The notes beneath the pieces were generated by a model. The model saw only the letters and a program-made list of their open reading frames with translations, made no database searches and was not told the DNA's origin. Shown one piece after another: positions 5,628 through 20,814 of a stretch of 64,000 bases of DNA (its first letter is position 1; each line of letters opens with the position of its first letter). The DNA comes from Kiritimatiellia bacterium. Lineage in GTDB: Bacteria; Verrucomicrobiota; Kiritimatiellia; UBA8416; JBFIFS01. The stretch covers positions 13,097 to 77,096 of the forward strand of contig JBFIFS010000001.1 in the NCBI GenBank assembly GCA_041602695.1. Reading direction: 5' to 3'. The position numbers and the translations under genes were made by a program.

Positions 5628-7172
5628 TCAGTCCAAAAGCGCCTGCAATCCCTCGATATGCGATGCAAGTGCCTTATCATCAACGCGTTGCGCGGCATCG
5701 AGCGCCTTCTTCATTGCCGCTGCCCCTTCGTTTATAAATCCTTGGGCATGAAGGCTCTTGGCGGCCGCGAGATAGCGCAGGCTGGATTTCTCAAACTCAT
5801 CCGCACGCGCGAAGTATGCAGCGCCCCTCTCGAGCGCGTTAGCCATCCCATATAGCAATCCAGCCGTGCTCAGTTCGCTTGCCTCCCTGTCGCTTAGCTC
5901 TCCGGCGCGGCGCGGCGTTTCGACTGCAAGGCGAGCCATGCCTCGGTAGAAAGCCGCCTTTGCCGCAGAGGTGCCCTTCTTTTCGACCTTCCTCCAATAT
6001 GTATCCTCTACCTCTTTGGCTTTAGTCTCATCTCCGGTGTTTGCCAGAAGCAGGTAGGCTGCTGCGATGAACTCCGAATGACCATCAAAAGGCATTCCCC
6101 TGGGAGGACGCTCCAGTACGCCTATCGATGCGTAAGATGCCGCCCAGCTCTTGTCTTCCTGGTGAATCAGGGCTCGCAACGCCTCGTTGTGGGCGACGCT
6201 GACAGGATCGCGTCTTCCCGACAAGTCCGCTTCCCGAAGAATGACTGCGGCGTCCTTCGCCTCTCCATTTCCATACATGCAGGCGGCTAAATTATAGGCG
6301 GTGCGCGCGATCTCTCCAGCGTCTGCCGTCTTTCTCGCTTCAGTAAGCTCTGCTTCGCACTTTCTGTACAGGTCCGGCTCCGTCTTGGCATAGAAGCCGT
6401 AGAGCGGAGATATGAACTCACTTGCTTCCTTTTCGGGAATATACTTGCGAATGAGCCAGTGTTTTTGTGCCCCCTTGATCAGGCGACGCGTCTCATGAAC
6501 GGTCGCACCGGCCTCCGCGAGTATTTCATTGAGGTGATTGATTGCCTCGCGGACATCAGCCGTGAGGGTCGGATCCGTGATCATCGTACCGAGCAGCCCT
6601 TCGCCGCCGCTCAGGTCTCCGGCTATCTTGTTGGCGTTCGACATCACACCGCTGGCCTCATCGACCATGGGCACGACAGCGGCCTGGAGCTGCTCTACTG
6701 CCTTCTTTGCAATCTCCATCAGCTCTTTGTCTTTGTAACAAGCGATCACTCCACCGTCCGCAATCTGCTCGCCCTGCCCTTCCGTAATTTCGATATGAGT
6801 ATCACCGGCGAGTCCGAACATCTTTTTTACGCGGGCAACGGAGTCCACGCTGACGTAGCGATGAAAGCGCTCTTTAATCTCCAGGACGGCCATCAGGCCT
6901 CCGTCATCCAGAGGCTCGATGCTCTTGACGCGGCCTGCCTTCGCGCTGCGTATCTTTACTTCATCGCCCTCCTGCAGGTCAAAGCTGCCCTGTTCCGCAG
7001 ACGACTTCCCGTCCGCATCCATAAAGACGGCATGGATTTCCACCCTGCCCTCAAACCATCCCTGCGCTTTTCCCGCGAGGATGACGCCTAGAATGAAGAG
7101 AGACAGAGCAATGAGAACCATTGCTCCAACTGTTTCGTTAACATAACGCAGCCCTGGCTTATTCGTAGTCAC
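5628..7172 (-). CDS. MlaD/MCE-domain protein with a long alpha-helical (TPR-like) C-terminal extension
   Basis: N-terminal TM (VGAMVLIALSLFILGVILAG) followed by an MCE-like barrel segment (GDEVKIRSAKAGRVKSIEP...LGLAGDTHIEITEG). About 380 further residues are rich in A/E/L. 14-nt overlap with the upstream ATPase-like gene. Confidence 0.65.
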   Translation of the reverse strand: MTTNKPGLRYVNETVGAMVLIALSLFILGVILAGKAQGWFEGRVEIHAVFMDADGKSSAEQGSFDLQEGDEVKIRSAKAGRVKSIEPLDDGGLMAVLEIKERFHRYVSVDSVARVKKMFGLAGDTHIEITEGQGEQIADGGVIACYKDKELMEIAKKAVEQLQAAVVPMVDEASGVMSNANKIAGDLSGGEGLLGTMITDPTLTADVREAINHLNEILAEAGATVHETRRLIKGAQKHWLIRKYIPEKEASEFISPLYGFYAKTEPDLYRKCEAELTEARKTADAGEIARTAYNLAACMYGNGEAKDAAVILREADLSGRRDPVSVAHNEALRALIHQEDKSWAASYASIGVLERPPRGMPFDGHSEFIAAAYLLLANTGDETKAKEVEDTYWRKVEKKGTSAAKAAFYRGMARLAVETPRRAGELSDREASELSTAGLLYGMANALERGAAYFARADEFEKSSLRYLAAAKSLHAQGFINEGAAAMKKALDAAQRVDDKALASHIEGLQALLD

Positions 7173-7851
7173 TACATGTTTCCTCTCTGGAATTTGTGTC
7201 TCTGATTGAAATTCGCCTTATTTCGGGCACACCTAAGTCTGACTCGTCGCCGGGTGGCTCCGCTCCGCTCCAAATCAGCGTCCCGCCAGATGCAATGTAC
7301 TTGCTGACCTGCTCCCTTAGCTGAACCGTGTGTGAGATCCCTGGCACCGTGTCACTATTGTCGAAAAGAAGAAGGGAGGGTGTTCCGAGAAAAGCCCTGA
7401 CCCACTGGCATCTTTCCAGGACAGAAGCGGCGGCGCCCTCAGGGCGCTCGTCCAGATGTTGCGTGACATCAAAGATAGCTGCGAGCAAGGCGATCTCCTC
7501 GTTGACCTGATCGGCCGTCAGGAAGCCCGCGTGCAGAACACGAAGTCCCACATTCATTCTCAAAGAGAGGTTCTCAATCCACGCCTTGTCGTGGGGAAAG
7601 ACTCGTCCGATCTGAGCGCGGGCCCGGCACTCCGCGAAGGGATCCAACTCACGCCATCGGAACCCCTGAAAGATTACCTCCCCCTTTATTGGCGGCACCA
7701 GCCCGGAGAGCACGTCATAGATCTCCTCGCAATTGCCGTGGGCCCAAAGGACCTGTCCCTTGTCGGCAGAAAACGAAAAGGCGGCTCCGGAGGACAGAAC
7801 CAGATCTCTCGCTTCCAGCAGGGACGCTTTGTTGTTGGTGGAATCAGACAT
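7159..7851 (-). CDS. Degenerate (probably non-catalytic) ABC ATPase homologue, MlaF position
   Basis: Length and motif order match an ABC nucleotide-binding domain, but each motif is mutated (see finding). Start is either the ATG at 7851 (8-nt overlap with the mlaE stop) or 7869. Confidence 0.6.
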   Translation of the reverse strand: MSDSTNNKASLLEARDLVLSSGAAFSFSADKGQVLWAHGNCEEIYDVLSGLVPPIKGEVIFQGFRWRELDPFAECRARAQIGRVFPHDKAWIENLSLRMNVGLRVLHAGFLTADQVNEEIALLAAIFDVTQHLDERPEGAAASVLERCQWVRAFLGTPSLLLFDNSDTVPGISHTVQLREQVSKYIASGGTLIWSGAEPPGDESDLGVPEIRRISIRDTNSREETCSDYE

Positions 7852-8650
7852 AGAAAATAACAGATACAAGAAACGATACTACAAGCATTGTCGCAATCGA
7901 AAGGACGACCCCTTTCGTGACCGCCTGCGGTATTTCTGTGCTCAGGCCGCTGGTCGAGAGGCCTTCCACGCAGCTTATAGCGCCAATCACGAGGCCGCCG
8001 AAAAGGCATTTCACCGCGAAGTCAAAGATGGCCGCCGGCGCAAGTGCAAACAGGACGGAATCCGCGAATTGCTGAAGTGTCACCTCCATCGTGCCGGTAA
8101 GCACACCGGCTATCCACCCGGAGAATAGAGATACAGCAACAAAGATCATGCTCAGACAGAAGTGCGATATGGATATGGCGGCGGACCGAGGCATTACCAG
8201 GTAGGTGAAGGTGTCAACGCCCTGTGCCTCCAGCACATGGAGCTCATGTCTGTTCCGCATGCCGGCCAGCTCCGCGCAGATTGCGGTTCCGCTGCGTCCA
8301 ATAATCACGAATCCAACAAACACGGGCGCTATGCCCGAAATCAGCAGGCGAACCAGGACCGTTCCCGTCAGGTCACTCTGCCCGATATTGGCCATCCAGA
8401 TCTGGACCTGCAACACCACGGCAACCCCGCAAAGGCATGAGAGGAGCACTATCAGCCGCAAAGCCTGTACACCACTGAAATAGAGCTGCCGCACAAAAAC
8501 AGATCTCACAGGGTAAGACCAGCTCCGTACATCAAGAGATACCCGGGTTGCCGCTAAAGCTACAGCGGCTATTCGGCTCGCCTCACTAAAGACAGAACGG
8601 GTCCTCTCGCCAACCGCCGCGAGGACTGCGGCCGCGTCCGCACTTCGCAT
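7844..8650 (-). CDS. mlaE: MlaE-family ABC transporter permease
   Basis: 268 aa, multi-TM, with the family-typical GRSGTAICAELAGMRNRHELHVLEAQGVDTFTYLVMPR segment. Confidence 0.8.
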   Translation of the reverse strand: MRSADAAAVLAAVGERTRSVFSEASRIAAVALAATRVSLDVRSWSYPVRSVFVRQLYFSGVQALRLIVLLSCLCGVAVVLQVQIWMANIGQSDLTGTVLVRLLISGIAPVFVGFVIIGRSGTAICAELAGMRNRHELHVLEAQGVDTFTYLVMPRSAAISISHFCLSMIFVAVSLFSGWIAGVLTGTMEVTLQQFADSVLFALAPAAIFDFAVKCLFGGLVIGAISCVEGLSTSGLSTEIPQAVTKGVVLSIATMLVVSFLVSVIFYV

Positions 8651-8711: not shown

Positions 8712-9488
8712 CTATTTCTCCTCCACTATGCGCAGCCACTCTGTCGGGACAAGTCGCTCGAAACCCATATGGTCGAGGACGAGTACGCGATATGATGCTC
8801 GCAGAGGGCGGAGAAAGCGGAGGATCGTTCCGGCAGGCACCTTCCTGTTGTCGCTCTTCATCAACCGGACGAGGCTCCAGCGCTTCAGGTTTCTGATCCT
8901 GTTCCAGTAATCCTCGGACATCTTAACAGGTCTGGATGGAACAGTTCTTCGCTTTCTCCGGCTTGAATCGTGCTTGCGGCAGGGCTTTAGAGAGACTGCG
9001 TATCCCATCTCACAGGCGCGCCCGACAGCCCATTTGTCCGCTGACTTTTCTCCTTCGCGTCCGTGAAGCCCAAGCTTGTATCTCCTGTAGTGATGAAGCT
9101 CATGGGCGAAAATGTAAGCGAGGTGGGCGTGGAATGACCGAAGCCAGATGCGGAAACCGTTCTGGTTATACTCCACCCTTGGGTAGGAAATGCCATTGCA
9201 GCCCATTGAGACCTCAATGAGTGCAAACTTGTCCGGCAGTCCGGGCGGAATACCGCCGGAATGTGCGGACTTCCACGGCCCGCGCATGCGGTGCAGTGCG
9301 TGGCGCGAAATATCCTTCGAGTAGAACGCCCCGCTCCAGCCCGAAGTGTCTGGATTAAGCTGTACTACAACCAGAAGGCGACGGGTATCGGTTCCGCGCG
9401 CTATGCGCCGTACTGTGCCCTCCACGCGCATCCTGTCTGTAGCGAAGGACCGAAAAGCACCCGCCGGACTGTATATTAATACTCTCAT
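8712..9488 (-). CDS. Hypothetical protein with an HExxH zincin-like motif
   Basis: 258 aa with a single AHELHHYRRY motif followed by GEKSADKWA. No other family recognised. Sits 61 nt upstream of mlaE on the same strand. Confidence 0.4.
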   Translation of the reverse strand: MRVLIYSPAGAFRSFATDRMRVEGTVRRIARGTDTRRLLVVVQLNPDTSGWSGAFYSKDISRHALHRMRGPWKSAHSGGIPPGLPDKFALIEVSMGCNGISYPRVEYNQNGFRIWLRSFHAHLAYIFAHELHHYRRYKLGLHGREGEKSADKWAVGRACEMGYAVSLKPCRKHDSSRRKRRTVPSRPVKMSEDYWNRIRNLKRWSLVRLMKSDNRKVPAGTILRFLRPLRASYRVLVLDHMGFERLVPTEWLRIVEEK

Positions 9489-9599: not shown

Positions 9600-10409
9600 A
9601 TGTACGAGATGATTATCAGGGGCTGTCGGGGCACGGTGCCTGTCTGCAGCACTCAGTTTGTCGATTTTGGCGGATGCAGTACATCGTTCTCTGTGAACAC
9701 GCCAGAGGGACTGCTGCTGATTGATGCCGGAACGGGCATTAAGTCCGTCGATCCGGTAACCGCCCCTGATTCTATTTACCTGCTTTTTACCCACTACCAC
9801 GTGGATCACATATCTGGCCTGCCTGTATTTGCGCCCTTATATTACAAGGGCAAGACGGTCACTCTTATGGGCGATCCGCAGCGCGAGGATAACTGGCGGG
9901 ACACGTTGTCAAATTTCATGACCAAGCCCTACTGGCCAATTGGTATTGCTGACACCCCCGCGAAGCTTTCAATGGAAGACCTTGTGCCCGGCGGCGATCT
10001 GCGCCTCGGGGATGTCAGGGTGACGTGGATGCCCCTGCCCCATCCGCAGGGCTGCCTCGCGTTCAGGATTGACTGTCCTGACTACAGTGCTGTTATTGCC
10101 ACCGATGTCGAGTTCCCGAAAGACATAGTTCCCGATGAGTTTTCGGAGTTTGCTTCCGGAGCGACATTCCTCATATTTGACGCGCAGTACCACCCCGCCG
10201 AGCTTCTGGAGCACCAGGGCTGGGGCCACAGCTCCTGGAGGACGGCCTGCAGGGCGGCAGCCGATTCCGGGGCAAGAAACCTTATACTGACTCATCATGC
10301 CCCGGACAGGACAGATCTTGAGATTCGGGATATCGAACGGCTGGCCAAAAAGGAGTTTGCAGACACTGTAGCCGGATCGTGCGGAATGACTATTTGGCCG
10401 CAGATCTGA
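9600..10409 (+). CDS. Metallo-beta-lactamase-fold hydrolase
   Basis: HYHVDHISG (HxHxDH) motif plus downstream His/Asp ligand candidates. 20-nt convergent overlap with the gene at 10390. Confidence 0.75.
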   Translation: MYEMIIRGCRGTVPVCSTQFVDFGGCSTSFSVNTPEGLLLIDAGTGIKSVDPVTAPDSIYLLFTHYHVDHISGLPVFAPLYYKGKTVTLMGDPQREDNWRDTLSNFMTKPYWPIGIADTPAKLSMEDLVPGGDLRLGDVRVTWMPLPHPQGCLAFRIDCPDYSAVIATDVEFPKDIVPDEFSEFASGATFLIFDAQYHPAELLEHQGWGHSSWRTACRAAADSGARNLILTHHAPDRTDLEIRDIERLAKKEFADTVAGSCGMTIWPQI

Positions 10410-11535
10410 TCTGAGGGGGCAGAGACTCCAGCGAGATGGTTCCGTCTACTTGCGCCTGAAGTGCATGGCCGGCAACCATGTCGATTTCCTTGCTATTGCC
10501 GGGCCACGGGTACTGCTCCATCAGTTCGATGACTTCCTGGCTCATGTTCGGCAGGACCCCGCCCTCTTTGTTGATTCGGGTTTGCATGGCCATGCGCAGC
10601 GTCGGAACCACGTCTTCCTTTCTGTCTCGCAGCGGCGGGATCTTTATGAGGATGATCTTCAAAGCCTTGTAGAAGCTCAGGCTCAACTCGCCGGCCGCGG
10701 CCATCTGTTCCAGATTACCTGTCCCTGATGCAATGATGCGTGCATCGAGCAGGCGCTCCTTGTCCTGCTCAGAAGAAGTAAACTTTTTGTCTTCAAGGAT
10801 CGTCGCAAGCCGCTCCTGTTCCTGTAATGGCAGCGACTCTATCTGTTTCAGGTAGAGGGTAGCCCCACAAGCCCTGTCCAGCGCCGAAGGCTTTCCTGGC
10901 TCACCGGCAAGCAGCGTTCCCGCCTCCGGACGCGAGCAGTCGACCGTAACCATTTCTTTGTCCTTACGCCGGCTGTACTGATGCAGTGTTTCTGCGACGA
11001 GACTCTTGCCTGTGCCCTTTTCTCCCGTAATAAGCACTGTGACATCGGTTCCTGCTACACGGCTGATCATGTCGCAGACGCTCTTCATTATGGGGCTTTC
11101 CGCCACAATGCCTTCGAACTGGTATGTCGATTCAAGCTGCAGGTTAAGGTTAACGGAATCGGAGTCCAGCAGGCCCTGAAAATCTACTGCGCGCTGCACC
11201 GTGCTCAGAAGCTGATCAATCTTGAGCGGCTTCTCAAGGCAAGCGAACGGCGACGCCTCTGCCACGCTCTGCATGGTGTTCTGGTCTGATGCGTCAATTA
11301 TCGCTATCACTGGGACAGCCGGATGGGCCGTCCTGACGCTCTTTACCAAATTGAACTCAGGATCCGCTTCTCCACCAGCAGATGCGAGTACCAGATCATA
11401 CGCAGCCCCCGCAAGCTTTTCCTCCGCCTGCTTACCATCGGCGGCAGCGTCAACCTTGTACCCCTCTGTTTTAAGCAGTTTTGTCAGAATTGCCGTCGTG
11501 CCCTGGTCTATGCTTGCTAAGAGAATTCCTGACAT
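10390..11535 (-). CDS. Pseudo-receiver + degenerate AAA+ sigma-54-activator-like protein (no GAFTGA, no HTH)
   Basis: Walker A GEKGTGKS and the C-terminal WPGN box place it in the bacterial enhancer-binding protein (bEBP) AAA+ family. Start chosen at the ATG at 11535 (MSGILLASID...), 1 nt after the cyclase stop (TAA-A-ATG); the track start at 11649 would overlap the cyclase by 113 nt. Confidence 0.7.
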   Translation of the reverse strand: MSGILLASIDQGTTAILTKLLKTEGYKVDAAADGKQAEEKLAGAAYDLVLASAGGEADPEFNLVKSVRTAHPAVPVIAIIDASDQNTMQSVAEASPFACLEKPLKIDQLLSTVQRAVDFQGLLDSDSVNLNLQLESTYQFEGIVAESPIMKSVCDMISRVAGTDVTVLITGEKGTGKSLVAETLHQYSRRKDKEMVTVDCSRPEAGTLLAGEPGKPSALDRACGATLYLKQIESLPLQEQERLATILEDKKFTSSEQDKERLLDARIIASGTGNLEQMAAAGELSLSFYKALKIILIKIPPLRDRKEDVVPTLRMAMQTRINKEGGVLPNMSQEVIELMEQYPWPGNSKEIDMVAGHALQAQVDGTISLESLPPQIRSAAK

Positions 11536-11536
11536 T

Positions 11537-13777
11537 TTAGTCCTTTGTTGCTCTGATAAACTCGCCGTTCCAGCCCACCTCGGGCTCAGCTTCCCTGTAA
11601 CCGCTAATGCGCAACAAGAGCTTAACACAGGGACCGTCCTCTTGGTCAAGCGATAATGCCTGCTTCAGAAGCCTTTCAGCCCTGTCCCAGTCCCGGTCCC
11701 AGTGCGCTTTCAGAGCTTCTTCATAGAGGTCTGTAACCTTCCTTCGCTGCTCGTCAATCTCGCCTTTCCTGGCTATTAGTTCGTAGAGAAGGATCGGTCG
11801 AGTCTTACCTTTGACTATGATCTTGTCGAGCATTCTGGCCTCAATGTGGTCTTTTGCGGCCTCGTATGTTGTTTCCCCGATAGCTATCATTGTTCCGTAG
11901 TCTTTGTTCGCCGGCTCAAAGCGCGCCGCCTGGTTCACGGGGTCCCCCATTACGGTGTACTGGAAGCGCCTGTCGGAACCCATGTTGCCCGCAGTGACGG
12001 TGCCTGAGTTAATCCCCATCCGGACGTGAAGCTCATGACCGAACTCTTCAAGCAGTGCCGGACGGATACGATCCAGCGCGGCCTGCTGCTCGATCGCAGC
12101 AAGGCATGCCTGAACCGCGTGGTCTTCGGTTGGAAAAGGAACACCCCACTCCGCCATAATTGCGTCTCCCTGGTATTTGTCCACATATCCGCCCCTGTCC
12201 ATGATGATCTGAGTCATAGGGCTGAGATACCGGTTCAAAAGTTCGGACAGCTTTGCCGGCTCCAGGCTCTCGGAGATGGTGGTAAAAGCCCGGACGTCAG
12301 AGAAGAACATTGTTGCCTCGGCCTTTTGTCCTGACAGGGAAAAGCTTCCCGGATTCTTTTCGAGATATGTGAGGACGTCCTCTGACACCATTGTGCCGAA
12401 CATGTCGCGAACCTTTTTCTTCTGGAGCTCCTCCTGCCAGAACTTGATCATCGTAAGGACAAGGTAGACTATGACTATTGTTATAATGATCCAGACCGGG
12501 ACGAAAACGAGGTGATACTCCTGGATCAGCAGCACGCTGGAGGCATAGGCGATCCAGATCATGGCAACGGTCACCAGGAAGCTCATCCACGAGCGCCCTC
12601 GTGCGATAAGGAATGAGAGAGCAAGGCCGGTGAGCAGGATGAAGATCGCCTGGACTCCTGTAAGGTAACTCGGCGCCAGCAGCATGTCGTCGGCAAGAAT
12701 ATTGTCTACCATCGTGGCGTGTATTTCCACGCCTGAAAAATGCTGTGTAAGCGGCGTGGCCCGGAGGTCCTTGAGCGCCGCCGCCGAAGTCCCCATGAAG
12801 ACAATCTTGTCAGCGAGCTCTCTTGACCCTACCTTGCCGTCCAGAATGTCTTTCGCGGAATAGGTGGGGAAAGAGCTGTAGAATCCCGACTTTGCGCTCT
12901 TGTTGATCGTTCGGTAATTGACCACGATTCTTCCGGCGTGATCAGTGGGAATCATGTAACTGCCCAGTCGTATGCGCGTGATGCCGTTTTCATCGTAGAA
13001 TACCATCCCGGAGCTGATCCCTTTGTCCAGCCTGACGGCCTCAAGTGCGAGCGCCGGATAGACCCGTTTGGGACCGTAAGCCCATATCAGGGGATTGCTT
13101 CTGACAACACTGTCGGAATCAACCAGGGCGTTAAAGAATGCAGTATTCGCGGCCTCGTTCAAGGCGAGTATCGGCACGCTCATTGTGTCCGCCTGGACCA
13201 AGAACTGTATTGGGTTGAGCTTTGCTTTACCCATGAAGGAAAGATAGGACGAGTAGAAGGGATCGATGGAATCGTCAACCATGTCGGCGGGGCGATCGAC
13301 CGGCCACATCATAATACCGAGAATAGCATTTCTGTTGCTCAGGCTTCCGGCAAAGACCTGATCGAAGTCGTGCACCTCATCCGGCAGGCCCTTGATGTGA
13401 ACATCAGCATCAAAGGCGCGCTTAATTCGAGCGGTAAGGATCTTAGGGGAAGTCCTGTCCTGCTCGGAAAATAGTATGTCATACGCAAGGACCGACGCCC
13501 CTGACTCAAATATCCTGTCATTAAGCCTGGCTACCAGATAACGGGGCCACGGCCATTGCCCCAAGTGCGGGTCCGCCATGCTGTCATCATCGATGTCAAC
13601 AATAACCACCCTCCCTGACTTCGGTGGTTCGCTTACGCGACGGAGAAGCGCGTCATAAGCATAATTTGAGATCGCCTGAATGAAGCCTGGGCCCCAGAGG
13701 AAGAGTATGAGGCAAACCACGGTGACCGCGAGCCCAACCAGCATCACCGGGTTTATGCGGCGCAATGTTTTCAGCAT
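11537..13777 (-). CDS. CHASE2-domain membrane-bound class III adenylate (nucleotidyl) cyclase
   Basis: N-terminal TM followed by a CHASE2 signature (VVIVDIDDDSM...GQWPWPRYLVARL...AYDILFSE). Then a block of TM helices and a cyclase domain (FSDVRAFTTISE, DKYQGDAIMA, YTVMGDPVNQAARFE), ending in a short TPR-like tail. Confidence 0.85.
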   Translation of the reverse strand: MLKTLRRINPVMLVGLAVTVVCLILFLWGPGFIQAISNYAYDALLRRVSEPPKSGRVVIVDIDDDSMADPHLGQWPWPRYLVARLNDRIFESGASVLAYDILFSEQDRTSPKILTARIKRAFDADVHIKGLPDEVHDFDQVFAGSLSNRNAILGIMMWPVDRPADMVDDSIDPFYSSYLSFMGKAKLNPIQFLVQADTMSVPILALNEAANTAFFNALVDSDSVVRSNPLIWAYGPKRVYPALALEAVRLDKGISSGMVFYDENGITRIRLGSYMIPTDHAGRIVVNYRTINKSAKSGFYSSFPTYSAKDILDGKVGSRELADKIVFMGTSAAALKDLRATPLTQHFSGVEIHATMVDNILADDMLLAPSYLTGVQAIFILLTGLALSFLIARGRSWMSFLVTVAMIWIAYASSVLLIQEYHLVFVPVWIIITIVIVYLVLTMIKFWQEELQKKKVRDMFGTMVSEDVLTYLEKNPGSFSLSGQKAEATMFFSDVRAFTTISESLEPAKLSELLNRYLSPMTQIIMDRGGYVDKYQGDAIMAEWGVPFPTEDHAVQACLAAIEQQAALDRIRPALLEEFGHELHVRMGINSGTVTAGNMGSDRRFQYTVMGDPVNQAARFEPANKDYGTMIAIGETTYEAAKDHIEARMLDKIIVKGKTRPILLYELIARKGEIDEQRRKVTDLYEEALKAHWDRDWDRAERLLKQALSLDQEDGPCVKLLLRISGYREAEPEVGWNGEFIRATKD

Positions 13778-13808
13778 CCGCTTATCCGTTCATCATAGTG
13801 GGCATGCA

Positions 13809-15566
13809 TCAGAACAGGTCCGCACCAAAGCCGCCATGCGCGCTGGCTGCCGTTCCGTGATTGAAATTGAACGTCCCTGCCGCGCCCGTTATTGGAACGG
13901 TGCCCATCCCGGGGCCAACCAGATGTCCGCCGACAGTATGGCCCGTCAGTGAGCCGATGCCGTATGGAGTCCCATTGACAATAAGGCTGTAACTTGCGGG
14001 CGCCCCTGTCATTAATCCGTCACTCTGTATTATTCCCCCCGCCTGGAATGCCAGGCTGTCGCCGCCCATATTGTTCATCGAAAAATTGCCGTTCCAGTTG
14101 GGCGTAGTGCCCTGCCCCACCTGTACTGACAGGGCGCACGTGCCCTGTACCAGCCTGGCGTAGGGGCCAGCGAAGACCATGGCAGCCGCGGTGCCTGAAC
14201 CTGAGAGGTTGTACATGGTTGAACCGACAGCAATCGCAGCGAAGTCTGCTCCCTTTATCTTGGCAAGAGACCTGAATGCAACCGACTGAGGAACACCTTC
14301 AAGTTCCCATATCCCCCAATCCCAGTCCGTACCTCCTCCCATTTGCACAAGAACAGGAGATGGTCCCGGCGGCGGAGGCGGAGGATTGGTAGTTCCGTCC
14401 GGTGGCGGGGGGTCCTCATTCGGCGGCGGCGGTGGCGGAGGAGGCGGAGGTGGATCTTCCAGCTGGTCCTCAGGCGGCGGAGGAGGAGGCGGTGGCGGAG
14501 GAGGCGGAGGACGCGCAAGAAGTGTGTCGTCCGGGGGAGGCAGCAGCACGCTGCCATCGGGAGGCGGCAGGAGCGGATCGGTAGTATTTCCATCCGGCGG
14601 TGGAAGCAGCAAGCTGCCATCAGGAGGCGGCAGCTGTGTGGAGTCCGGCGGCGGCCTGCGGCGGGGCCTCGCATTGCGATGGCCGGGCCTAGGCCCATCA
14701 TCGGGTGGAGGAAGCATTGCAACATCTTCACCGGGCGGAGGAGGCAGGATTCCCTTGTCTTCCGGCGGCGGATCCTCGCCTTCCCTGAAAATTGGCTGGT
14801 CTTCATTCGCGGCATCACCGGCACCGGGCAGCGGGGCTGCGCTCAGGTCAAGGTTGGGATCCTTGTCAGCTCCGACAGGGGTGCAGTCATCTATCAGCCT
14901 GGCCAGGTCAGCTGGTGTAAGTTCTGTTTCCTTCAGTCCTTCGTTCTCGCTTATTGATACAATCCGGCCCGGCTTCTTGGCGTGCAGCGTCCTTGCGATA
15001 TCCTTACCTGTCTGCTGGATGCTCAAATTGTCCGGCTGCACTCCATCAAGGGCGGCTTTCGACGACGCAGTGATGACGACGCTCTCTTTTTCCCCAAGCT
15101 CAATTATGTAAATATTTTCAGACTGCTGAGAAATCCTGAAGCCCATTTCGCAGCCCCGAATTCCGATGGTGGCCATGCGGGTCTTTACCTGGAAGCGTTC
15201 CGGGTTCAGTTTGGTTATCTTCCCCGTTACCATGCGGAATATTCCCTTTATCGCACCGAGTGAACAGTTGGCGCTGTCCTTGTCGCCGGGGTTGTAGACA
15301 TACTTGTCTATCACGATCTCGCTCTTTTCTCCCTGAGAGATGACCGTCTCGTCCTTGAATATTATTTGCAGCTTTGCGCCCTCGCCGGTGGCCACCTTGT
15401 CATTGAGGAAGACCGGGCTCTTGATTTCCAGGGGGCGAAGTTTGGCATCGGTTCCGACGGCGGTGGCCTTTCCTTCCAACGCTATCACGCTGCCGATCGG
15501 TTCGGCGAATAACAGGGCAGGAAACAGCAGCCCCAAGCACAGTGCGTTTCGAATCAAAGCGTTCAT
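13809..15566 (-). CDS. Secreted FecR-domain protein with a polyproline spacer and a C-terminal Gly/Thr-rich beta-barrel-like domain
   Basis: Signal peptide (LGLLFPALLFA/EP). FecR-like segment (IGSVIALEGKATAV...VFLNDKVATGEGAKLQIIFKDETVISQGEKSEIVI). Residues ~265-404 are proline-rich. The C-terminus shows an alternating beta pattern and ends GGFGADLF. Confidence 0.7.
   Translation of the reverse strand: MNALIRNALCLGLLFPALLFAEPIGSVIALEGKATAVGTDAKLRPLEIKSPVFLNDKVATGEGAKLQIIFKDETVISQGEKSEIVIDKYVYNPGDKDSANCSLGAIKGIFRMVTGKITKLNPERFQVKTRMATIGIRGCEMGFRISQQSENIYIIELGEKESVVITASSKAALDGVQPDNLSIQQTGKDIARTLHAKKPGRIVSISENEGLKETELTPADLARLIDDCTPVGADKDPNLDLSAAPLPGAGDAANEDQPIFREGEDPPPEDKGILPPPPGEDVAMLPPPDDGPRPGHRNARPRRRPPPDSTQLPPPDGSLLLPPPDGNTTDPLLPPPDGSVLLPPPDDTLLARPPPPPPPPPPPPPEDQLEDPPPPPPPPPPPNEDPPPPDGTTNPPPPPPGPSPVLVQMGGGTDWDWGIWELEGVPQSVAFRSLAKIKGADFAAIAVGSTMYNLSGSGTAAAMVFAGPYARLVQGTCALSVQVGQGTTPNWNGNFSMNNMGGDSLAFQAGGIIQSDGLMTGAPASYSLIVNGTPYGIGSLTGHTVGGHLVGPGMGTVPITGAAGTFNFNHGTAASAHGGFGADLF
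14355..14774 (-). repeat. In-frame proline-rich low-complexity region (LLPPPDG repeats and polyproline runs)
   Basis: The plus strand shows a (A/C/T)GG triplet array. By my codon count there are runs of 13 (14472-14510) and 11 (14421-14453) consecutive Pro codons, plus four LPPPDG/LLPPPD repeats. Confidence 0.85.
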
Positions 15567-15582
15567 TCTATACCTCCATTAC

Positions 15583-17319
15583 TCAAAAGGCGTAAAACAC
15601 GGATGCCGTCGTAACCTCTCTGTCGTACTGATAAAGCGCGAATGAGGAAGTAGAGCGCGTGGACTGATAGTTGATGTCAGCACCAAAGCGGGTTCCAAAC
15701 CGTCGGCTTAGCCCCACGGTTACCTGGCGCTGTGAATCTTCCCTCTGTTCAGGCGAAAGGTCCTCTTTTTCAGCGTAGCTGGTCTTCGTGCTGGACAGCC
15801 TCCCATAGAGAACACAGCCCAACGGAATGACCTGCTCGGCGCCAAGGTTCCATGCGACGCTGTTGTACTCGTAGACTCCAGAATCCGTTCCGTCATGCGA
15901 GAACGCGAGGCCCATAACCACGCTGGCCTTGCCGTCCGGCGCGATCATCTTTACCGCCTGGCCGATTGACGCGTACCAGCCGTCTCGGTCATTGAGCTCC
16001 TTGTAGTCCCTCATCTCGGCGACCGCACTGGTTGTAAGGCTGACCCGTCCTCCGCTGTGCATGCGCCTGTAAACGGGGGCTATGCCTATCATATCCACCA
16101 GCGCTTCTCCTCCGGTATCGATATGCGAGTACCTGACAGGGATCCGAACCAATGAGCTTCCAAATGCTTTCGAGAAGCCGGCTGCACCCATCAGGTACAT
16201 CGTCTCGTAAATCTCCGCATCATCTAGTGTATTATTATAAGCCATAATGTCGGCAAAAGCAAGCCAGCCCCCCTGAGCTCCGACGTCAGAGGTCCCGGAA
16301 AGGCTGAGTGATGCGAACTGCCCTTTTGACTCCGCAGGAAGTGACTCGGAGGTCAGCGATAACTCGTCGATAGAGAGGCTGCCGAATACGATGGGAGCGA
16401 TGCTTATGATCGTGGAGTCCGGCCCGACGTTGACATTACTGTCATCGATGAATCCGACGTCGATACGTCCAGACAACGCTCGTTTCTTGGAGTAACCCTC
16501 CACCTCCCTCAGGTAACGCTCAACGTTGGCCCTCACTTTGCTGTTGAGATCGTGAGCCAAGACTTCCCTGAGGTTTTTGCGGGCGGCCTCGTAAAGGCGG
16601 CTCGCTACCTGGGCCCGGGCAAGCTCAAGGCGCGCCCTGTCATTTGCGGGGTTAACCATCAAAATGCGCTCGAACGCCAGGCGGGCCCTCGGATGGTCCC
16701 CCAGCGCCATGCAGGTCATGCCGTATGCGAAATTAATCTTCTGGTTCTCCGGGTCTGCTGCCAGTAACTCGCTGAGGAGTTTGTAGGATGTCTTCAAGTC
16801 ACCCGACTCGCGCGCTGCCTCGGCCTGACTGTAACGATCGTCAATGACCGGCTCCAGATAGACAGACTTCGTCTGCTTTACGAGAGCGGCAGCAACAGCC
16901 TTTGCGTTCTGTGACATGGCCAGCTGGAGCGGCGTGACACCTTTGTTTGCCTTCACGTCAACCCTCGCCCCCTTGGCTATCAGGAGGGTGGCTATTTCGC
17001 CCGCGTCAAAAAATGCGGCCCAGTGCAGGGGCGTGTAGCCCTCCGAGGTCGCGAGCTCTATGTCAGCTCCGCTTGCCGCCAGCAACTCAACCATCTCCTT
17101 GTTCTTGAGTCCCACGGCAAGATGGAGGGGCGTCGAACCGCCGGATGTCTGTGCGTTCACGGCCAGAGGCTCGGAAGCAAGAATGCGCCTCACGGCGTCG
17201 AAATCCTCATTCTCAACCGCGGTATGGATAGGCGCTGACTGCGCGCGCATGGTGGCCATCGATAATGCAAGCGCCATGGCCCAAAAGCACTGAGTTCTTA
17301 TGATAGTAGAAAAATGCAT
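15583..17319 (-). CDS. Outer-membrane protein: signal peptide, 3 ankyrin repeats, TPR-like region, C-terminal beta-barrel
   Basis: Signal peptide ALALSMATMRA/QS. ANK repeats (GGSTPLHLAV, GYTPLHWAA, GVTPLQLAM). TPR-like helices (residues ~160-280). The last ~290 aa show alternating beta-strand patterning with GFIDDSNVNVGP, and the protein ends in the OMP-typical aromatic terminus VFYAF. Confidence 0.65.
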   Translation of the reverse strand: MHFSTIIRTQCFWAMALALSMATMRAQSAPIHTAVENEDFDAVRRILASEPLAVNAQTSGGSTPLHLAVGLKNKEMVELLAASGADIELATSEGYTPLHWAAFFDAGEIATLLIAKGARVDVKANKGVTPLQLAMSQNAKAVAAALVKQTKSVYLEPVIDDRYSQAEAARESGDLKTSYKLLSELLAADPENQKINFAYGMTCMALGDHPRARLAFERILMVNPANDRARLELARAQVASRLYEAARKNLREVLAHDLNSKVRANVERYLREVEGYSKKRALSGRIDVGFIDDSNVNVGPDSTIISIAPIVFGSLSIDELSLTSESLPAESKGQFASLSLSGTSDVGAQGGWLAFADIMAYNNTLDDAEIYETMYLMGAAGFSKAFGSSLVRIPVRYSHIDTGGEALVDMIGIAPVYRRMHSGGRVSLTTSAVAEMRDYKELNDRDGWYASIGQAVKMIAPDGKASVVMGLAFSHDGTDSGVYEYNSVAWNLGAEQVIPLGCVLYGRLSSTKTSYAEKEDLSPEQREDSQRQVTVGLSRRFGTRFGADINYQSTRSTSSFALYQYDREVTTASVFYAF

Positions 17320-17410
17320 TACGTACCGTGGTTAGGATAAATTACGCCAACCTGCGTGTCAACGCCGCTTGTGCGGACCGACTGTGGCAATTCAGGGTGC
17401 ACATTGAATC

Positions 17411-17447: not shown

Positions 17448-18563
17448 ATGAGGATTTGCATAGATATTCAGCCAGCCGTAACTCAACGGGCCGGGATCGG
17501 CAGGTACGTGTCAGAGCTTGTGGGACATCTTCCAAAGGAAGACGATTGCAATTTCGACCTTTTTTACTTCGACTTTAAGGGCAGGGCCCGTCCGCCCCGT
17601 GCAGAAAGCTGCACTCTCAAGAGGTACTCTAAGCTCCCCGGGATGCTGGTTCAGCAGGCATGGAAGCGCGTTGGATGGCCGCGCTTCGATTCAATTGCCG
17701 GGGATGCTGACCTCTATCATTTCCCGAATTTTATTATCCCTCCCCTCTCCTCGGGCAAGAAGGCGGTGGTCAGTATTCACGATATCAGCTTCATCCTGCA
17801 TCCAGAGTTTGCGGAAAAGCGAAACCTTGATTACCTGTCCCGCCGGATTAAGGCGACGGTCCAGAGGGCCGATGCTGTGATAACTATTTCTGAGCAGAGC
17901 GCCAGCGACATAAATAAGCACCTGGGCGTGCCGCGTGAAAAACTTTCGCCCATACACCTTGGGGTGTCGCAGAGCTTTCAGCCTGCCCAGGATGAAGACA
18001 TCCTGTCCGCAAAGCAGGCTCTTGGACTGGACAGGCCTTTCATTTTGATGGTCGGCACGTTCGAGCCTCGCAAGAACATCCCGTATGCGGTGGAGCTCTT
18101 CGAAAAGATGTCGTTCTTTGATGGTGACCTCGTTATCGTGGGGCAGAAGGGTTGGAAGAATGAGGCTATCTTTGACGTAATCACCGCGTCTTCGCGCTCC
18201 GCAAGGATTAAAACAATTCAGGCGGTTTCCGACCAACACCTCGTAAGCCTCTATTCAGGGGCCGAATTTCTCCTCATGACGTCCCTCTATGAGGGCTTCG
18301 GCTTTCCCCCTGTCGAGGCAATGGCATGCCATACACCCGTGCTGACTTCGGCAGGAGGATCCCTTGCGGAAATCTGTGGTGACGCCGCTATAGTTATTGA
18401 GGAGTATGACCCGGAGCTGTGGCTTGAAAAGGCTCAGGCCATTCTGCACGATTCCGGGCTGCGAAATGATCTCGTCGCGCGAGGGATTGAGAAGGCTAAG
18501 AACTACACCTGGCAGAAGACTGCCGATGAGCACGTGTCCGCCTACAGGAAGGTCGTGAAGTGA
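17448..18563 (+). CDS. Glycosyltransferase, GT4 (group 1) family
   Basis: GT-B C-terminal signature SLYEGFGFPPVEAMACHTPVLTSAGGSLAEICGDAA. Confidence 0.8.
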   Translation: MRICIDIQPAVTQRAGIGRYVSELVGHLPKEDDCNFDLFYFDFKGRARPPRAESCTLKRYSKLPGMLVQQAWKRVGWPRFDSIAGDADLYHFPNFIIPPLSSGKKAVVSIHDISFILHPEFAEKRNLDYLSRRIKATVQRADAVITISEQSASDINKHLGVPREKLSPIHLGVSQSFQPAQDEDILSAKQALGLDRPFILMVGTFEPRKNIPYAVELFEKMSFFDGDLVIVGQKGWKNEAIFDVITASSRSARIKTIQAVSDQHLVSLYSGAEFLLMTSLYEGFGFPPVEAMACHTPVLTSAGGSLAEICGDAAIVIEEYDPELWLEKAQAILHDSGLRNDLVARGIEKAKNYTWQKTADEHVSAYRKVVK

Positions 18564-19714
18564 AAGTTCTCGTCGATGCCCGATGGATATTTCCCGAAAT
18601 ATCAGGAATAGGACTTTACACAGTGGAGCTTCTTCGCGCCCTGCTGGCGCAGGACCGCGAAAATGACTATGTCGTGCTGTTCAGTGATGCGGGCGTGATG
18701 GAGCGCACCGTGCTTGACCTGGGGCTTGATGAGGCGCGGAACGCGGAAGCGAGCCTCGTGCCCTACGGTGTCTTCTCCATGAAGAGCCAGCTCATGATGC
18801 CTTCCTACATTCGTGGGATCGGCGCGGATATATTCCACTCCACAAACTACATGGTGCCGATGGCGGCGTTTTCTGCGCTGCGCGCCAATAGAACTAAATG
18901 TGTGATTACGATCCACGACCTGATCCCCCTGCTCTTTCCAGATCATGCGCCGAAGGCAAAGAAGACGCGGCTCATGCCCCTCTATAGGTTCGTCATGAGA
19001 CAGGTGGCGGCCCGGGCCGACGCAATCCTGACCGTCAGCGAGAATTCCGCCCATGACATAAGGCGCATGCTTATGTCACGAAACGCGGATCACGCAAAGG
19101 TCGTGTCTGCCTACAACGGGGTTTCGGATGAATACCGCAAGCTCGCATGGGCGCCCGCGCGAAATCCGCGAAAACTGCTCTATGTCGGCAGGCTTGACCC
19201 ATACAAGAATGTCACAGGACTCATGCGCATTTTCAAAGGCGTGCTTGGGCGAACTTCAGAGAAGGTGAAACTGGTCATAGCAGGATCGAAAGATCCGCGC
19301 TATCCCGAAGCAGAAAGGCTTGCTGAAGAGCTTGGCGTCTCAGAGCACGTGGAATGGACCGGCTACGTCACCCCTGAAAAGCTGATTGCACTTTACGCGG
19401 AGGCAAGCGTTTTGGTGCATCCATCCCATTATGAAGGGTTCGGTTTACCGGTAGCGGAGGCAATGGCAGCCGGACTGCCGGTTGTCTGCAGCAGCGGAGG
19501 GTCGTTGTCGGAAGTCGCAGGCAACGCCGCATGCGTGCACGAACACACTGACGAAACGGGGTTTGTTGAGAGTATCTGTTCGATACTTGATTCAGAGTCA
19601 AAGGCGAAAGAGCTCTCGCAGCTTGGCCGCAGCCAGGCCGAGAAGTTTACGTGGGCCAATGCCGCCCGGAAGACGCGCGAGGTGTATGAAATGCTTGCAG
19701 GGGGGAACTCATGA
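18560..19714 (+). CDS. Glycosyltransferase, GT4 (group 1) family
   Basis: SHYEGFGLPVAEAMAAGLPVVCSSGGSLSEVAGNAA. GTGA start/stop overlap with the upstream gene. Confidence 0.8.
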   Translation: MKVLVDARWIFPEISGIGLYTVELLRALLAQDRENDYVVLFSDAGVMERTVLDLGLDEARNAEASLVPYGVFSMKSQLMMPSYIRGIGADIFHSTNYMVPMAAFSALRANRTKCVITIHDLIPLLFPDHAPKAKKTRLMPLYRFVMRQVAARADAILTVSENSAHDIRRMLMSRNADHAKVVSAYNGVSDEYRKLAWAPARNPRKLLYVGRLDPYKNVTGLMRIFKGVLGRTSEKVKLVIAGSKDPRYPEAERLAEELGVSEHVEWTGYVTPEKLIALYAEASVLVHPSHYEGFGLPVAEAMAAGLPVVCSSGGSLSEVAGNAACVHEHTDETGFVESICSILDSESKAKELSQLGRSQAEKFTWANAARKTREVYEMLAGGNS

Positions 19715-20814
19715 GGTACCCAGGCAATCATGGATCCAAGACAGCTTTGCTCTGCCACGACTGGCTTACGGGAATGCGGGGCGGGGAGAAAGTGCTGGAG
19801 ATCCTTTGCGAATGGTTTCCCGAGGCTGATGTCTGCACTCTTATCTGTAACCCTGGATCCATCTCCCAAACGATAAAGCGGCATCACATCCGTACATCTC
19901 GCCTCCAGTCCATGCCTGGCATCTTCGCGAACTACAGATATTACCTCCCCTTCTTTCCGTCAGCCCTCCGCTCCATTCGGGTTCCCCCGGCGGACCTGCT
20001 GATAAGCACAAGCCACTGTGTTGCAAAGGGGCTTCCCAAGCCGCCCTCCTCCCGCCATCTATGCTACTGCTTTACGCCCATGCGCTACGCCTGGCTGTTT
20101 CACGATGAGTATCTCGGGCGCAATCCTTTGAAACGCCTGCTCGCGGCGCCCATCCTGTCATATATGCGAAATTGGGACATGCGCACCGTGCCTAACGTGG
20201 ATATGTTCGTGGCCATAAGCCGCCATGTCGCCGACAGGATCCGACGTTTCTATGGACAGGAGGCGGAAATAGTCTTTCCTCCGGTAGATACGGACCGTTT
20301 CACGCCCGGGGACGAGAGCGCCGATTTTGACCTGATAGTTTCAGCGCTTGTGCCCTACAAGAAGGTCGATCTGGCCGTTGAGGCTTACCGAAATATGGAC
20401 CGGCGGCTAAAGATTGCCGGAACGGGAACCGAGCTCAAGCGCCTGCGTGAGAATGCTCCGTCGAACGTCGAGTTCCTGGAGTGGCAAAGCGATGACCAGA
20501 TTCTCGGGCTTTACAGGGCCTGCAGGCTCCTGGTCTTTCCGGGCGAGGAGGATTTCGGTATTGTGCCCGTAGAGGCCCAATCCTGCGGCAAACCGGTTGT
20601 TGCGTACCGCAAGGGCGGCGCCCTTGAAACGATAGCCGAGGGCGTTTCCGGCGTTTTCTTTGACGAACAGGACCCGTCCTCGCTTGCCCAGGCCGTAGAG
20701 GACTGTGCGGCCAGAAAGTGGGGGTCGGAAGCAATTCGGAATCACGCCCTCTCATTCAGCACGCAGAACTTTGTCAATGGCCTCGCCAGGTGCATTGACA
20801 AGCTGTTGGGCTGA
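19711..20814 (+). CDS. Glycosyltransferase, GT4 (group 1) family
   Basis: N-terminal CHDWLTGMRGGEKVLE and C-terminal EDFGIVPVEAQSCGKPVVAYRKGGALETI. ATGA overlap with the upstream gene. Confidence 0.75.
   Translation: MRYPGNHGSKTALLCHDWLTGMRGGEKVLEILCEWFPEADVCTLICNPGSISQTIKRHHIRTSRLQSMPGIFANYRYYLPFFPSALRSIRVPPADLLISTSHCVAKGLPKPPSSRHLCYCFTPMRYAWLFHDEYLGRNPLKRLLAAPILSYMRNWDMRTVPNVDMFVAISRHVADRIRRFYGQEAEIVFPPVDTDRFTPGDESADFDLIVSALVPYKKVDLAVEAYRNMDRRLKIAGTGTELKRLRENAPSNVEFLEWQSDDQILGLYRACRLLVFPGEEDFGIVPVEAQSCGKPVVAYRKGGALETIAEGVSGVFFDEQDPSSLAQAVEDCAARKWGSEAIRNHALSFSTQNFVNGLARCIDKLLG

Follow-up and report, generated by a model that had tools for sequence, protein, structure and literature searches.

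A recurrent gene trio coding for a Slam-like outer-membrane protein, a secreted FecR-domain protein and a CHASE2 sensor, with a proposed role in trans-envelope signaling

We analyzed a 64,000-nucleotide (nt) stretch from a Kiritimatiellia bacterium (assembly GCA_041602695.1, contig JBFIFS010000001.1, forward-strand positions 13,097 to 77,096; hereafter the window), concentrating on four consecutive minus-strand genes, here called genes 1 to 4. An initial annotation made from the sequence alone had read them as an envelope-to-cytoplasm signaling cassette built around a CHASE2-containing cyclase. Gene 1 (15583-17319) codes for a 578-amino-acid (aa) outer-membrane protein (OMP) with a signal peptide, ankyrin repeats, tetratricopeptide repeats (TPRs), a DUF560/Slam-type β-barrel and a C-terminal Phe. 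It is followed by gene 2 (13809-15566), coding for a 585-aa protein with a signal peptide lacking a lipobox, a FecR domain, a Pro-rich and acidic linker and a C-terminal barrel. Gene 3 (11537-13777) specifies a 746-aa protein in which a transmembrane (TM) segment, a CHASE2 domain and three further TM segments precede a predicted class IIIb adenylate cyclase, and gene 4 (10390-11535, with its ATG at 11535) a 381-aa protein combining a pseudo-receiver with a degenerate sigma-54-activator AAA+ domain and its lid but no helix-turn-helix (HTH). Comparison across genomes revealed that genes 1 to 3 form a recurrent, conserved unit and are not part of a one-off four-gene invention.

The intergenic gaps of 16, 31 and 1 nt read earlier were reproduced from the open reading frames (ORFs) and the sequence. 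The TGA of gene 1 is followed by 16 nt including GGAGG and then the ATG of gene 2, the TGA of gene 2 by 31 nt and the ATG of gene 3, and genes 3 and 4 meet in a TAA-A-ATG junction with an AAGGA 5 nt upstream, within the cyclase gene. The exact 746-aa and 381-aa sequences are present in an NCBI-derived protein collection, and these identical public sequences support the start codons of genes 3 and 4. A sigma-70-like promoter candidate, identified by consensus match only (minus strand, 17334-17362; TTGACA-17-TATCCT, 10 of 12 matches), directly precedes gene 1, and the three gaps between genes 1 and 4 contain no terminator-like site or hairpin. The cotranscription proposed earlier is accordingly plausible, in that a single transcript for genes 1 to 4 is compatible with, though not proven by, the promoter candidate and the terminator-free gaps. 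Three overlapping ORFs of 189 to 241 aa on both strands at 14255-15111 were rejected as shadow ORFs; they fall within the sequence for the Pro-rich linker of gene 2, translate into Arg-rich or Gly-rich products and can be attributed to its CCG/CCT-rich repeats, a composition artifact.

Profile searches of the gene 1 protein recovered Ank_2 (7.8e-19), TPR_19 (5e-12) and, at aa 287-568, the SlipAM/DUF560 family (PF04575; 26.0 bits against a cutoff of 22, profile positions 6-278 of 288), with TPR_Slam at 29 bits, under its cutoff of 35. About 45 full-length homologs were found, most of which have a precomputed PF04575 or PF24575 assignment. The AlphaFold2 (AF2) model built from these 45 homologs (predicted local distance difference test score [pLDDT] of 90.2) comprises a signal helix, four pairs of ankyrin helices, where the initial annotation had counted three repeats, TPR helices at aa 162-276 and an all-β region at aa 280-577. 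The ankyrin region (16870-17238, minus strand; aa 28-150), concordantly identified by Pfam, AF2 and Foldseek and presumably periplasmic, is confined to the subclade nearest to the window. It is succeeded by the TPR region (16489-16842, minus strand; aa 160-277), which is defined by TPR_19, TPR_16 and TPR_Slam matches together with the modeled helix pairs, and by the DUF560/SlipAM β-barrel (15586-16482, minus strand; aa 280-578), for which DSSP assigned 17 β elements, or 15 if two pairs among them each represent one kinked strand. Foldseek comparisons of the model retrieved BcsC (TPR plus barrel), DARPins for the ankyrin part and CymA as the best barrel-only match in the Protein Data Bank (PDB), with a target TM score (TMt) of 0.50 to 0.56; no solved Slam structure was among the PDB matches. 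A Slam-type OMP would be expected to have a 14-stranded barrel, and CymA is 14-stranded. The C-terminal Phe is kept in at least 90% of the family members from related genomes. Gene 1 thus codes for an OMP resembling those of the Slam/type 11 secretion system (T11SS), with an ankyrin and TPR arm, in agreement with the assignment in the initial annotation, since the DUF560 gathering score is passed and a TPR domain is present.

The N-terminal FecR-type domain of the gene 2 protein (14922-15503, minus strand; aa 22-215) matches PF04773 at aa 56-148 (3e-8; 34.4 bits against a cutoff of 24) and carries an IGIRGC motif. An N-terminal FecR domain is present in 87 of the 90 full-length members of the gene 2 family, and in the alignment of these 90 the Gly and Cys of the IGIRGC(E/D) motif (listed as G140 and C141) are invariant. 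The Cys corresponds to aa 147 of the window protein (15126-15128); the RGC signature occurs in 99 of 101 representatives, and the homolog from Desulfobacter has RGS in its place. An intermolecular disulfide linking FecR to CHASE2 is unlikely, because the CHASE2 ectodomain of the window has no Cys. The signal peptide is of type I, and a loose lipobox pattern occurs in only 9 of 101 family members; hence, the family is predicted to be non-lipidated. The FecR domain is followed by a low-complexity linker (14367-14921, minus strand; aa 216-400) consisting of 37% Pro and 17% Asp plus Glu. The architecture of a FecR domain, a proline spacer and a β-rich C-terminal domain proposed earlier stands, with the spacer measuring about 185 aa and not about 140. 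The rod that the polyproline run was thought to form does not: linkers across the family range from 49 to 546 aa (median, 132), have a median of 13% Pro and 17% Asp plus Glu, and are variously acidic, Pro rich or Gly-Ser rich, so that the polyproline run appears to be a window-specific elaboration of a variable disordered linker. We also observed that aa 25-89 (15300-15494) weakly match the NCBIfam model of the LapA retention module (NF033682; E = 5e-5; 23.5 bits, with a cutoff of 50) and, likewise weakly, Lsa33 and LipL45, two Leptospira surface proteins of the FecR type. By analogy, the gene 2 protein may be a topological counterpart of LapA, namely, a periplasmic plug on a chain that passes through a pore in the outer membrane.

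The C-terminal domain of the gene 2 protein (13812-14366, minus strand; aa 401-585, about 181 to 185 aa) is predicted to be a small β-barrel resembling T11SS cargo. An exhaustive HMMER search recovered relatives in 183 representative clusters, 148 of them with E < 1e-10, where a word-indexed search gave a single relative. The domain is always C terminal, in proteins of about 450 to 900 aa, and is followed by a tail of at most 6 aa in 94% of the members. The AF2 model from a 42-sequence alignment (pLDDT, 98.2; predicted TM score, 0.92) contains a small sheet and a helix, after which come the eight main strands. Its best PDB match by Foldseek is the C-terminal domain of NHBA (6cuj; E = 3.6e-6; TMt, 0.59 to 0.67), and TbpB (3ve1 and 5kkx) was recovered at E values of 4e-4 to 1e-3 with a query TM score (TMq) of 0.56 to 0.58; the HpuA barrel (5ee2) ranked 50th (E = 0.14). 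Proteins occupying the same slot in other loci provide a positional link to the TbpB_B_D family: that of an uncultured Desulfobacter (locus L007) matches this profile at 2e-9, and that of the Paracoccus plasmid pAMI5 (L009) matches it at 2e-4 and FHBP_C at 2e-3. On the basis of the model, the domain is best described as a TbpB/NHBA-like, T11SS-cargo-like fold.

In the gene 3 protein, the CHASE2 domain (12623-13720, minus strand; aa 20-385; PF05226, 1.8e-54) lies between TM segments, which were assigned by eye, and the cyclase catalytic domain (11798-12328, minus strand; aa 484-660) matches Guanylate_cyc at 1.5e-22. Its FFSD, DKYQGD and YTVMGD..VNQAAR motifs align residue for residue with CyaB of Pseudomonas aeruginosa (3r5g; E = 1e-34); both metal-coordinating Asp residues, the Lys and Thr that determine specificity and the transition-state Asn and Arg are conserved. 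The enzyme is therefore predicted to be an intact, adenylate-type class IIIb cyclase, and the adenylate-type reading proposed from these positions in the initial annotation was borne out by the identity of the Lys/Thr pair with that of CyaB.

The gene 4 protein matches Response_reg (5e-10), Sigma54_activat (3e-27) and AAA_lid_14 (1e-10) in Pfam and aligns with NtrC1 (1ny5; E = 9e-37) over the receiver (REC), AAA+ and lid regions, thus sharing the domain order of the NtrC family. Unlike NtrC1, it has Ser in place of the phospho-acceptor Asp (11380-11388), lacks the GAFTGA segment, has KQ for the Walker B DE and has substitutions in both arginine fingers and the sensor II Arg; Walker A is kept. 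No HTH was detected by Pfam, and the match to the NtrC profile stops at position 381 of 463. Accordingly, as had been proposed, gene 4 is predicted to code for a catalytically dead, non-DNA-binding protein that cannot act as a sigma-54 activator. All four orthologs, including that of the window (33 to 46% identity), lack GAFTGA, the Walker B DE and the arginine fingers. At the acceptor position, the window has Ser and L041 has Thr, with Asp kept in L002 (7259-8404) and L044 (15002-16288), the latter also having a degenerate Walker A motif (GTPK). The pattern is that expected of a conserved pseudoenzyme. Pfam and NCBIfam searches detected no cyclic-nucleotide-binding domain in it. Gene 4 adjoins the module in only 3 of the 66 loci described below (L035, L041 and L044; L002 has the arrangement of L035, with identical scores), and its slot is occupied elsewhere by a Ser/Thr kinase gene (L003) or by nothing (L006, L007 and L009). 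It is thus a lineage-specific add-on restricted to a Lentisphaerota-like subclade, outside the conserved system.

To trace the module, we scanned genomes with the FecR-family alignment, obtaining 66 loci, whose ORFs were called and searched with the domains of the window; the scan pattern is specific to the FecR subfamily of the window, so that the phyletic range is a lower bound. Nearly all of the loci come from Kiritimatiellia, Lentisphaerota/Victivallales, Verrucomicrobiota and Omnitrophota. For 51 FecR genes, the sequence extends far enough in both directions to assess the neighbors. Of these, 28 are directly preceded by the OMP gene and directly followed by the CHASE2 gene (29 with L053, whose OMP was masked by an ORF-start artifact), and 12 have neither neighbor; both neighbors flank 22 of the 35 FecR genes that carry the C-terminal domain. 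The four-gene order envisaged earlier therefore recurs for genes 1 to 3 but only rarely with gene 4. At 25 of 31 loci the CHASE2 protein is a cyclase, and at L020, L040, L048, L065 and L073 it is a hybrid histidine kinase; because the partner may be of either kind, the FecR/OMP pair tracks CHASE2 and not cyclic AMP (cAMP) as such. The four-gene order of the window, together with a convergent gene for a metallo-β-lactamase (MBL)-fold protein, is reproduced in L002 (OMP identity of 33%), and this five-gene layout is found in L002/L035 and L041. The order OMP, FecR, CHASE2 cyclase is followed by a Ser/Thr kinase gene in L003 to L005 (35%) and stands by itself in L006 (32%) and in L007 from Desulfobacter (24%); only the OMP and FecR genes are present in L001 (39%). 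The three-gene order also occurs on alphaproteobacterial plasmids, namely, pAMI5 of Paracoccus and p1 of Shinella, and an ordinary adjacency of Slam and a TbpB-like lipoprotein was seen in L077 and L078.

Several further features of these loci deserve mention. Two to four paralogous FecR-family loci occur in single genomes of the Planctomycetes-Verrucomicrobia-Chlamydiae (PVC) group (L019, L041, L072 and L075 in the Lentisphaerae metagenome-assembled genome MHBM01; L030 and L033 in JAQUPZ01), some with an OMP or CHASE2 neighbor and others without, which suggests an expanded sensor family. On an Ensifer plasmid (L008, 675-6713) and on Shinella p1 (L079, 2851-6640 and 13013-14507), the module adjoins NHLP-bacteriocin export genes (C39 peptidase/ABC and secretion protein), and in Ensifer it also adjoins a gene for a cyclic-nucleotide-binding protein, suggesting cAMP-controlled peptide export on these plasmids. 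Other candidate cAMP effectors are a patatin-like phospholipase with a cyclic-nucleotide-binding domain encoded by the module in Paracoccus (L009, 2188-4014) and a cNMP_binding-Rhodanese protein encoded beside the cyclase-less OMP-FecR pair of L001 (6211-6942).

The gene 1-gene 2 pair is reminiscent of the Slam/T11SS pairs (Slam1-TbpB/fHbp, Slam2-HpuA, HsmA-HphA and NilB-NilC), in which a TPR plus DUF560 OMP is encoded beside a Sec-dependent protein, and the small TbpB/NHBA-type barrel at the extreme C terminus of the gene 2 protein, after a variable N-terminal domain, is likewise in the manner of T11SS cargo. T11SS has been described mainly from Proteobacteria (PMC12282271). Unlike the known cargo, however, the gene 2 protein has a FecR signaling module and not a nutrient binder at its N terminus, a long disordered linker and a barrel that falls below detection by the Pfam TbpB_B_D profile. 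It also differs from the surface lipoprotein cargo in lacking a lipobox, although soluble, non-lipidated cargo is known. The locus itself departs from T11SS loci in the CHASE2 sensor gene that comes next, in the ankyrin repeats on the OMP and in its PVC-group hosts. In the open-access literature searched, we found no joint mention of DUF560 with FecR or of DUF560 with adenylate cyclase, and neither the T11SS papers among it nor the main text of the 2025 survey of T11SS cargo mentions FecR, CHASE2 or cyclases.

Parts of the arrangement have precedents on the sensor side. A Campylobacterota gene cluster comprising a CHASE2 cyclase, a cAMP phosphodiesterase (PDE), a FecR protein and a TPR protein was described by Mo et al. 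in 2022 and proposed to form one pathway that spreads by horizontal transfer (PMC9239204). By that description, which takes up one paragraph and offers no mechanism, the TPR protein was not identified as Slam/DUF560, the C-terminal barrel was not recognized and, unlike in the window, there is no REC-AAA+ gene. In Sinorhizobium meliloti, the CHASE2 cyclases CyaK and CyaD1/D2 of the Clr pathway need the outer-membrane barrel protein NsrA for an external plant protein signal (PMC7529298, PMC13001267). NsrA is about 1,200 aa long, with its barrel at aa 600-1200 (PMC7529298). A FecR domain is present in SMc02177, and smc02177 was reported as dispensable for signal perception (PMC5498481). We found that a FecR-domain gene in S. 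meliloti adjoins a stretch homologous to CHASE2-type cyclases, so that the NsrA pathway resembles the window in both this adjacency and the requirement of CHASE2 cyclases for an outer-membrane β-barrel. To see whether NsrA might be a Slam relative, we searched plasmids by tblastn with the window OMP, which found no relative on Sinorhizobium replicons. The BiofilmReg operon of Burkholderia, with genes for a response regulator, a LysM-FecR protein, a CHASE2 kinase and a DUF4136 protein (PMC5192318; COG4254-CHASE2 pairs), likewise has a secreted FecR protein gene directly upstream of a CHASE2 sensor gene, but with the peptidoglycan-binding LysM domain in place of the barrel, a histidine kinase and an OmpR-type regulator as output, and no OMP gene. 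The FecA-FecR-FecI system offers a precedent for relaying an outer-membrane event over the periplasm by a FecR domain. It differs from the window, where we found no extracytoplasmic function (ECF) sigma factor or TonB-dependent transducer near genes 1 to 4 and where the gene 2 protein has neither an anti-sigma domain nor a TM helix. Chains that a barrel protein retains across the outer membrane are exemplified by RcsF, which is threaded through OMPs, and by the LapA retention module; both are cited as analogies and not as tests of homology. The FecR-CHASE2 adjacency, the CHASE2-cyclase/PDE/FecR/TPR cluster and the need for an OMP in S. meliloti are thus already known, and the view in the initial annotation that no CHASE2 partner and no characterized pathway of such composition were known was overstated (PMC5192318, PMC9239204, PMC7529298, PMC13001267). 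Within the open-access literature searched, a T11SS-type OMP-cargo pair feeding a CHASE2 sensor appears to be new.

On the basis of these observations, we propose that genes 1 to 3 specify a trans-envelope sensory relay, to which gene 4 is a lineage-specific accessory, a reading of the whole to which we assign a probability of about 50%. In this relay, the gene 1 OMP would dock or export the C-terminal barrel of the gene 2 protein at the outer membrane, and the disordered linker would span the periplasm. The FecR domain, as the constant companion of CHASE2, would remain periplasmic, contact the CHASE2 ectodomain and set the activity of the cyclase. Ligand binding, envelope perturbation or another event at the cell surface or outer membrane would thereby make the class IIIb adenylate cyclase more or less active, and the neighboring MBL-fold protein, if a phosphodiesterase, would remove the cAMP. 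The gene 4 protein could be a non-catalytic, non-DNA-binding AAA+/REC scaffold that is translationally coupled to the cyclase and probably modulates it or reads it out. Our analysis establishes the domain identities, the apparent catalytic competence of the cyclase, the degeneracy of gene 4, the cargo-like fold and the conserved three-gene order; from these we infer how the proteins lie across the envelope, that FecR touches CHASE2 and which way the signal runs. A more specific version, in which a Slam/T11SS OMP has been recruited for signaling such that the barrel is held at the outer membrane or surface and the rest is threaded back, with FecR as the coreceptor or ligand of CHASE2, is tentative, and we hold it at somewhat worse than even odds. 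It would amount to a first general input mechanism for CHASE2, with the same device serving as the input to cyclases, histidine kinases and further outputs in several phyla.

Several observations weigh against the proposed relay and have to be set beside the alternatives to it. The C-terminal barrel has resisted attempts to connect it to the T11SS cargo by sequence: the window domain has no Pfam match, including to TbpB_B_D (PF01298), at E values up to 10; TbpB_B_D was found in none of 90 full-length family members at E values up to 0.01; the domain profile matched no PDB sequence; hhalign to a single sequence gave no significant link; and a 128-sequence hidden Markov model searched against all locus ORFs gave no significant bridge to TbpB_B_D. 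Comparison by hhalign with a small TbpB-like set reached a probability of only 22% (E = 1e-3), a weak result, albeit in the expected WGxW/YxGxAxG register. As the sequence bridges failed or were weak, the link to TbpB_B_D rests on structure and gene position. Hence, the small cargo-type barrel of the initial annotation is supported by the structural matches to NHBA and TbpB but not by Pfam, and it is the only item on its list of families to fail, with CHASE2, FecR, Guanylate_cyc, Sigma54_activat, Response_reg, Ank, TPR and DUF560/SlipAM all recovered in the four proteins. The Foldseek results further include integral 8-stranded OMPs, with Ail, OmpX and NspA at E values of 9e-4 to 1e-2 and lower TM scores, and with the range extending to 1e-1 when OmpA is included. 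These matches, and the Phe with which the window protein itself ends, would fit a domain that is inserted by the β-barrel assembly machinery (BAM) as an integral OmpX/Ail-like outer-membrane anchor, which would make the FecR protein an OMP in its own right, tethered into the periplasm, and leave gene 1 as a separate porin or assembly helper. We consider such an anchor unlikely: NHBA and TbpB are the stronger matches (E = 3.6e-6 to 4e-4; TMq of 0.51 to 0.58 versus 0.39 to 0.43), relatives in the same position carry bona fide soluble TbpB_B_D domains, and the BAM-inserted state is disfavored because a terminal Phe or Tyr occurs in only 12 of 79 tail-less members of the gene 2 family, whereas the terminal Phe is kept in the gene 1 family at the frequency given above.

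The gene neighborhoods also contain counterexamples to the relay. Ten of the 51 FecR genes have an OMP but no adjacent CHASE2 gene, and the genes downstream of these OMP-only loci are unrelated (PMT_2 glycosyltransferase, G6PD and others), for which reason an alternative sensor encoded there was rejected. Furthermore, L049, L050 and L053 have a barrel-less FecR protein of 248 to 315 aa between the OMP and the cyclase; thus, the link to the OMP is independent of the barrel, and export cannot be the whole story. The characterized T11SS cargo is, without exception, fully translocated (PMC8406197, PMC12282271), which would place FecR outside, away from CHASE2. Together with the extreme C-terminal position of the cargo-like barrel, a gene adjacency as in canonical Slam pairs and the absence of a lipobox, as in soluble hemophore cargo, this is what an ordinary T11SS pair would look like, in which the whole FecR-linker-barrel protein is exported to the cell surface or the medium, in the manner of TbpB, HphA or NilC, to serve as an external binding protein or adhesin, and the cyclase is merely coregulated or an indirect sensor. 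That all of gene 2 is secreted in this way seems to us improbable. Elsewhere, FecR domains serve as relay modules in the periplasm, the FecR-CHASE2 pairing persists without an OMP or barrel (PMC5192318; S. meliloti), its persistence with the barrel-less FecR proteins points to a periplasmic FecR-CHASE2 relationship, and the partner follows CHASE2 regardless of output domain. An extension of the relay to all four genes as a single obligate pathway, with the dead AAA+/pseudo-receiver protein as the dedicated output adaptor of the cyclase, as the initial annotation had it, could draw on the single nucleotide between genes 3 and 4 and the Shine-Dalgarno sequence that lies within the cyclase gene, on the five-gene layout with the MBL gene and on the degeneracy kept in the four orthologs, which implies selection as a non-enzyme. 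Yet, with gene 4 present in so few loci, with a Ser/Thr kinase, a hybrid kinase output or nothing in its stead in others, with two orthologs that keep the phospho-acceptor Asp, so that the input is not uniform, and with no detected domain for binding cyclic nucleotides, the obligate pathway is very unlikely, and we give the role of dedicated adaptor equally little credence.

To our knowledge, CHASE2 has been a widespread sensor domain lacking a defined input ever since it was named, and the module of genes 1 to 3 may show what such sensors listen to. A secreted FecR protein would be the proximal partner of CHASE2, with a second domain fixing its anchorage, namely, a T11SS-handled barrel here and LysM in Burkholderia. 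If this is true, T11SS OMPs extend past Proteobacteria and past nutrient-binding and adhesin cargo. The combination of a T11SS-like OMP/cargo architecture with CHASE2 is, in our view, the most interesting element of the locus, the REC-AAA+ pseudoenzyme being a secondary curiosity. The relay would be a compact route from the envelope to cAMP, and cultivable carriers exist in Paracoccus aminophilus (pAMI5) and Shinella sp. H4-D48 (p1).

The MBL-fold hydrolase gene of the window (9600-10409, plus strand) is convergent with gene 4, which it overlaps by 20 nt at its 3′ end. Its product matches Lactamase_B_2 (8.5e-18) and, weakly, RNase Z and the cyclic-nucleotide-degrading PDE family NF041851 (2e-9, far under the cutoff; Apyc1 type), making it a candidate cyclic-nucleotide phosphodiesterase. 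An MBL homolog is encoded by the module in 9 of the 66 loci as well as in L002 and L008, and L006 has a Pfam-annotated Lactamase_B gene downstream. A cAMP phosphodiesterase activity is plausible from these profile matches, and the gene is probably the counterpart of the "PDE" in the published Campylobacterota cluster. No cAMP effector was found among the ten flanking window ORFs scanned, which are mostly housekeeping genes (thrC, rpoD, Mla, obg and argJ). An ORF at 7159-7869 has no family match. Between the MBL gene and the Mla (MlaE/MlaD) set lies a 258-aa ORF (8712-9488, minus strand) that has a HELHH motif but gave no match in Pfam or NCBIfam. A housekeeping-type sigma-70 factor of 690 aa is encoded at 3430-5502 (minus strand); it comprises regions 1.1 to 4, with region 1.1 beginning at aa 160 after an unusually long N terminus. 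Divergent from gene 1 are three consecutive genes with overlapping stop and start codons (17448-20814, plus strand), coding for proteins of about 370 to 384 aa that by eye resemble GT4-type glycosyltransferases (EGFG..P.EAMA motif) and are candidates for this family.

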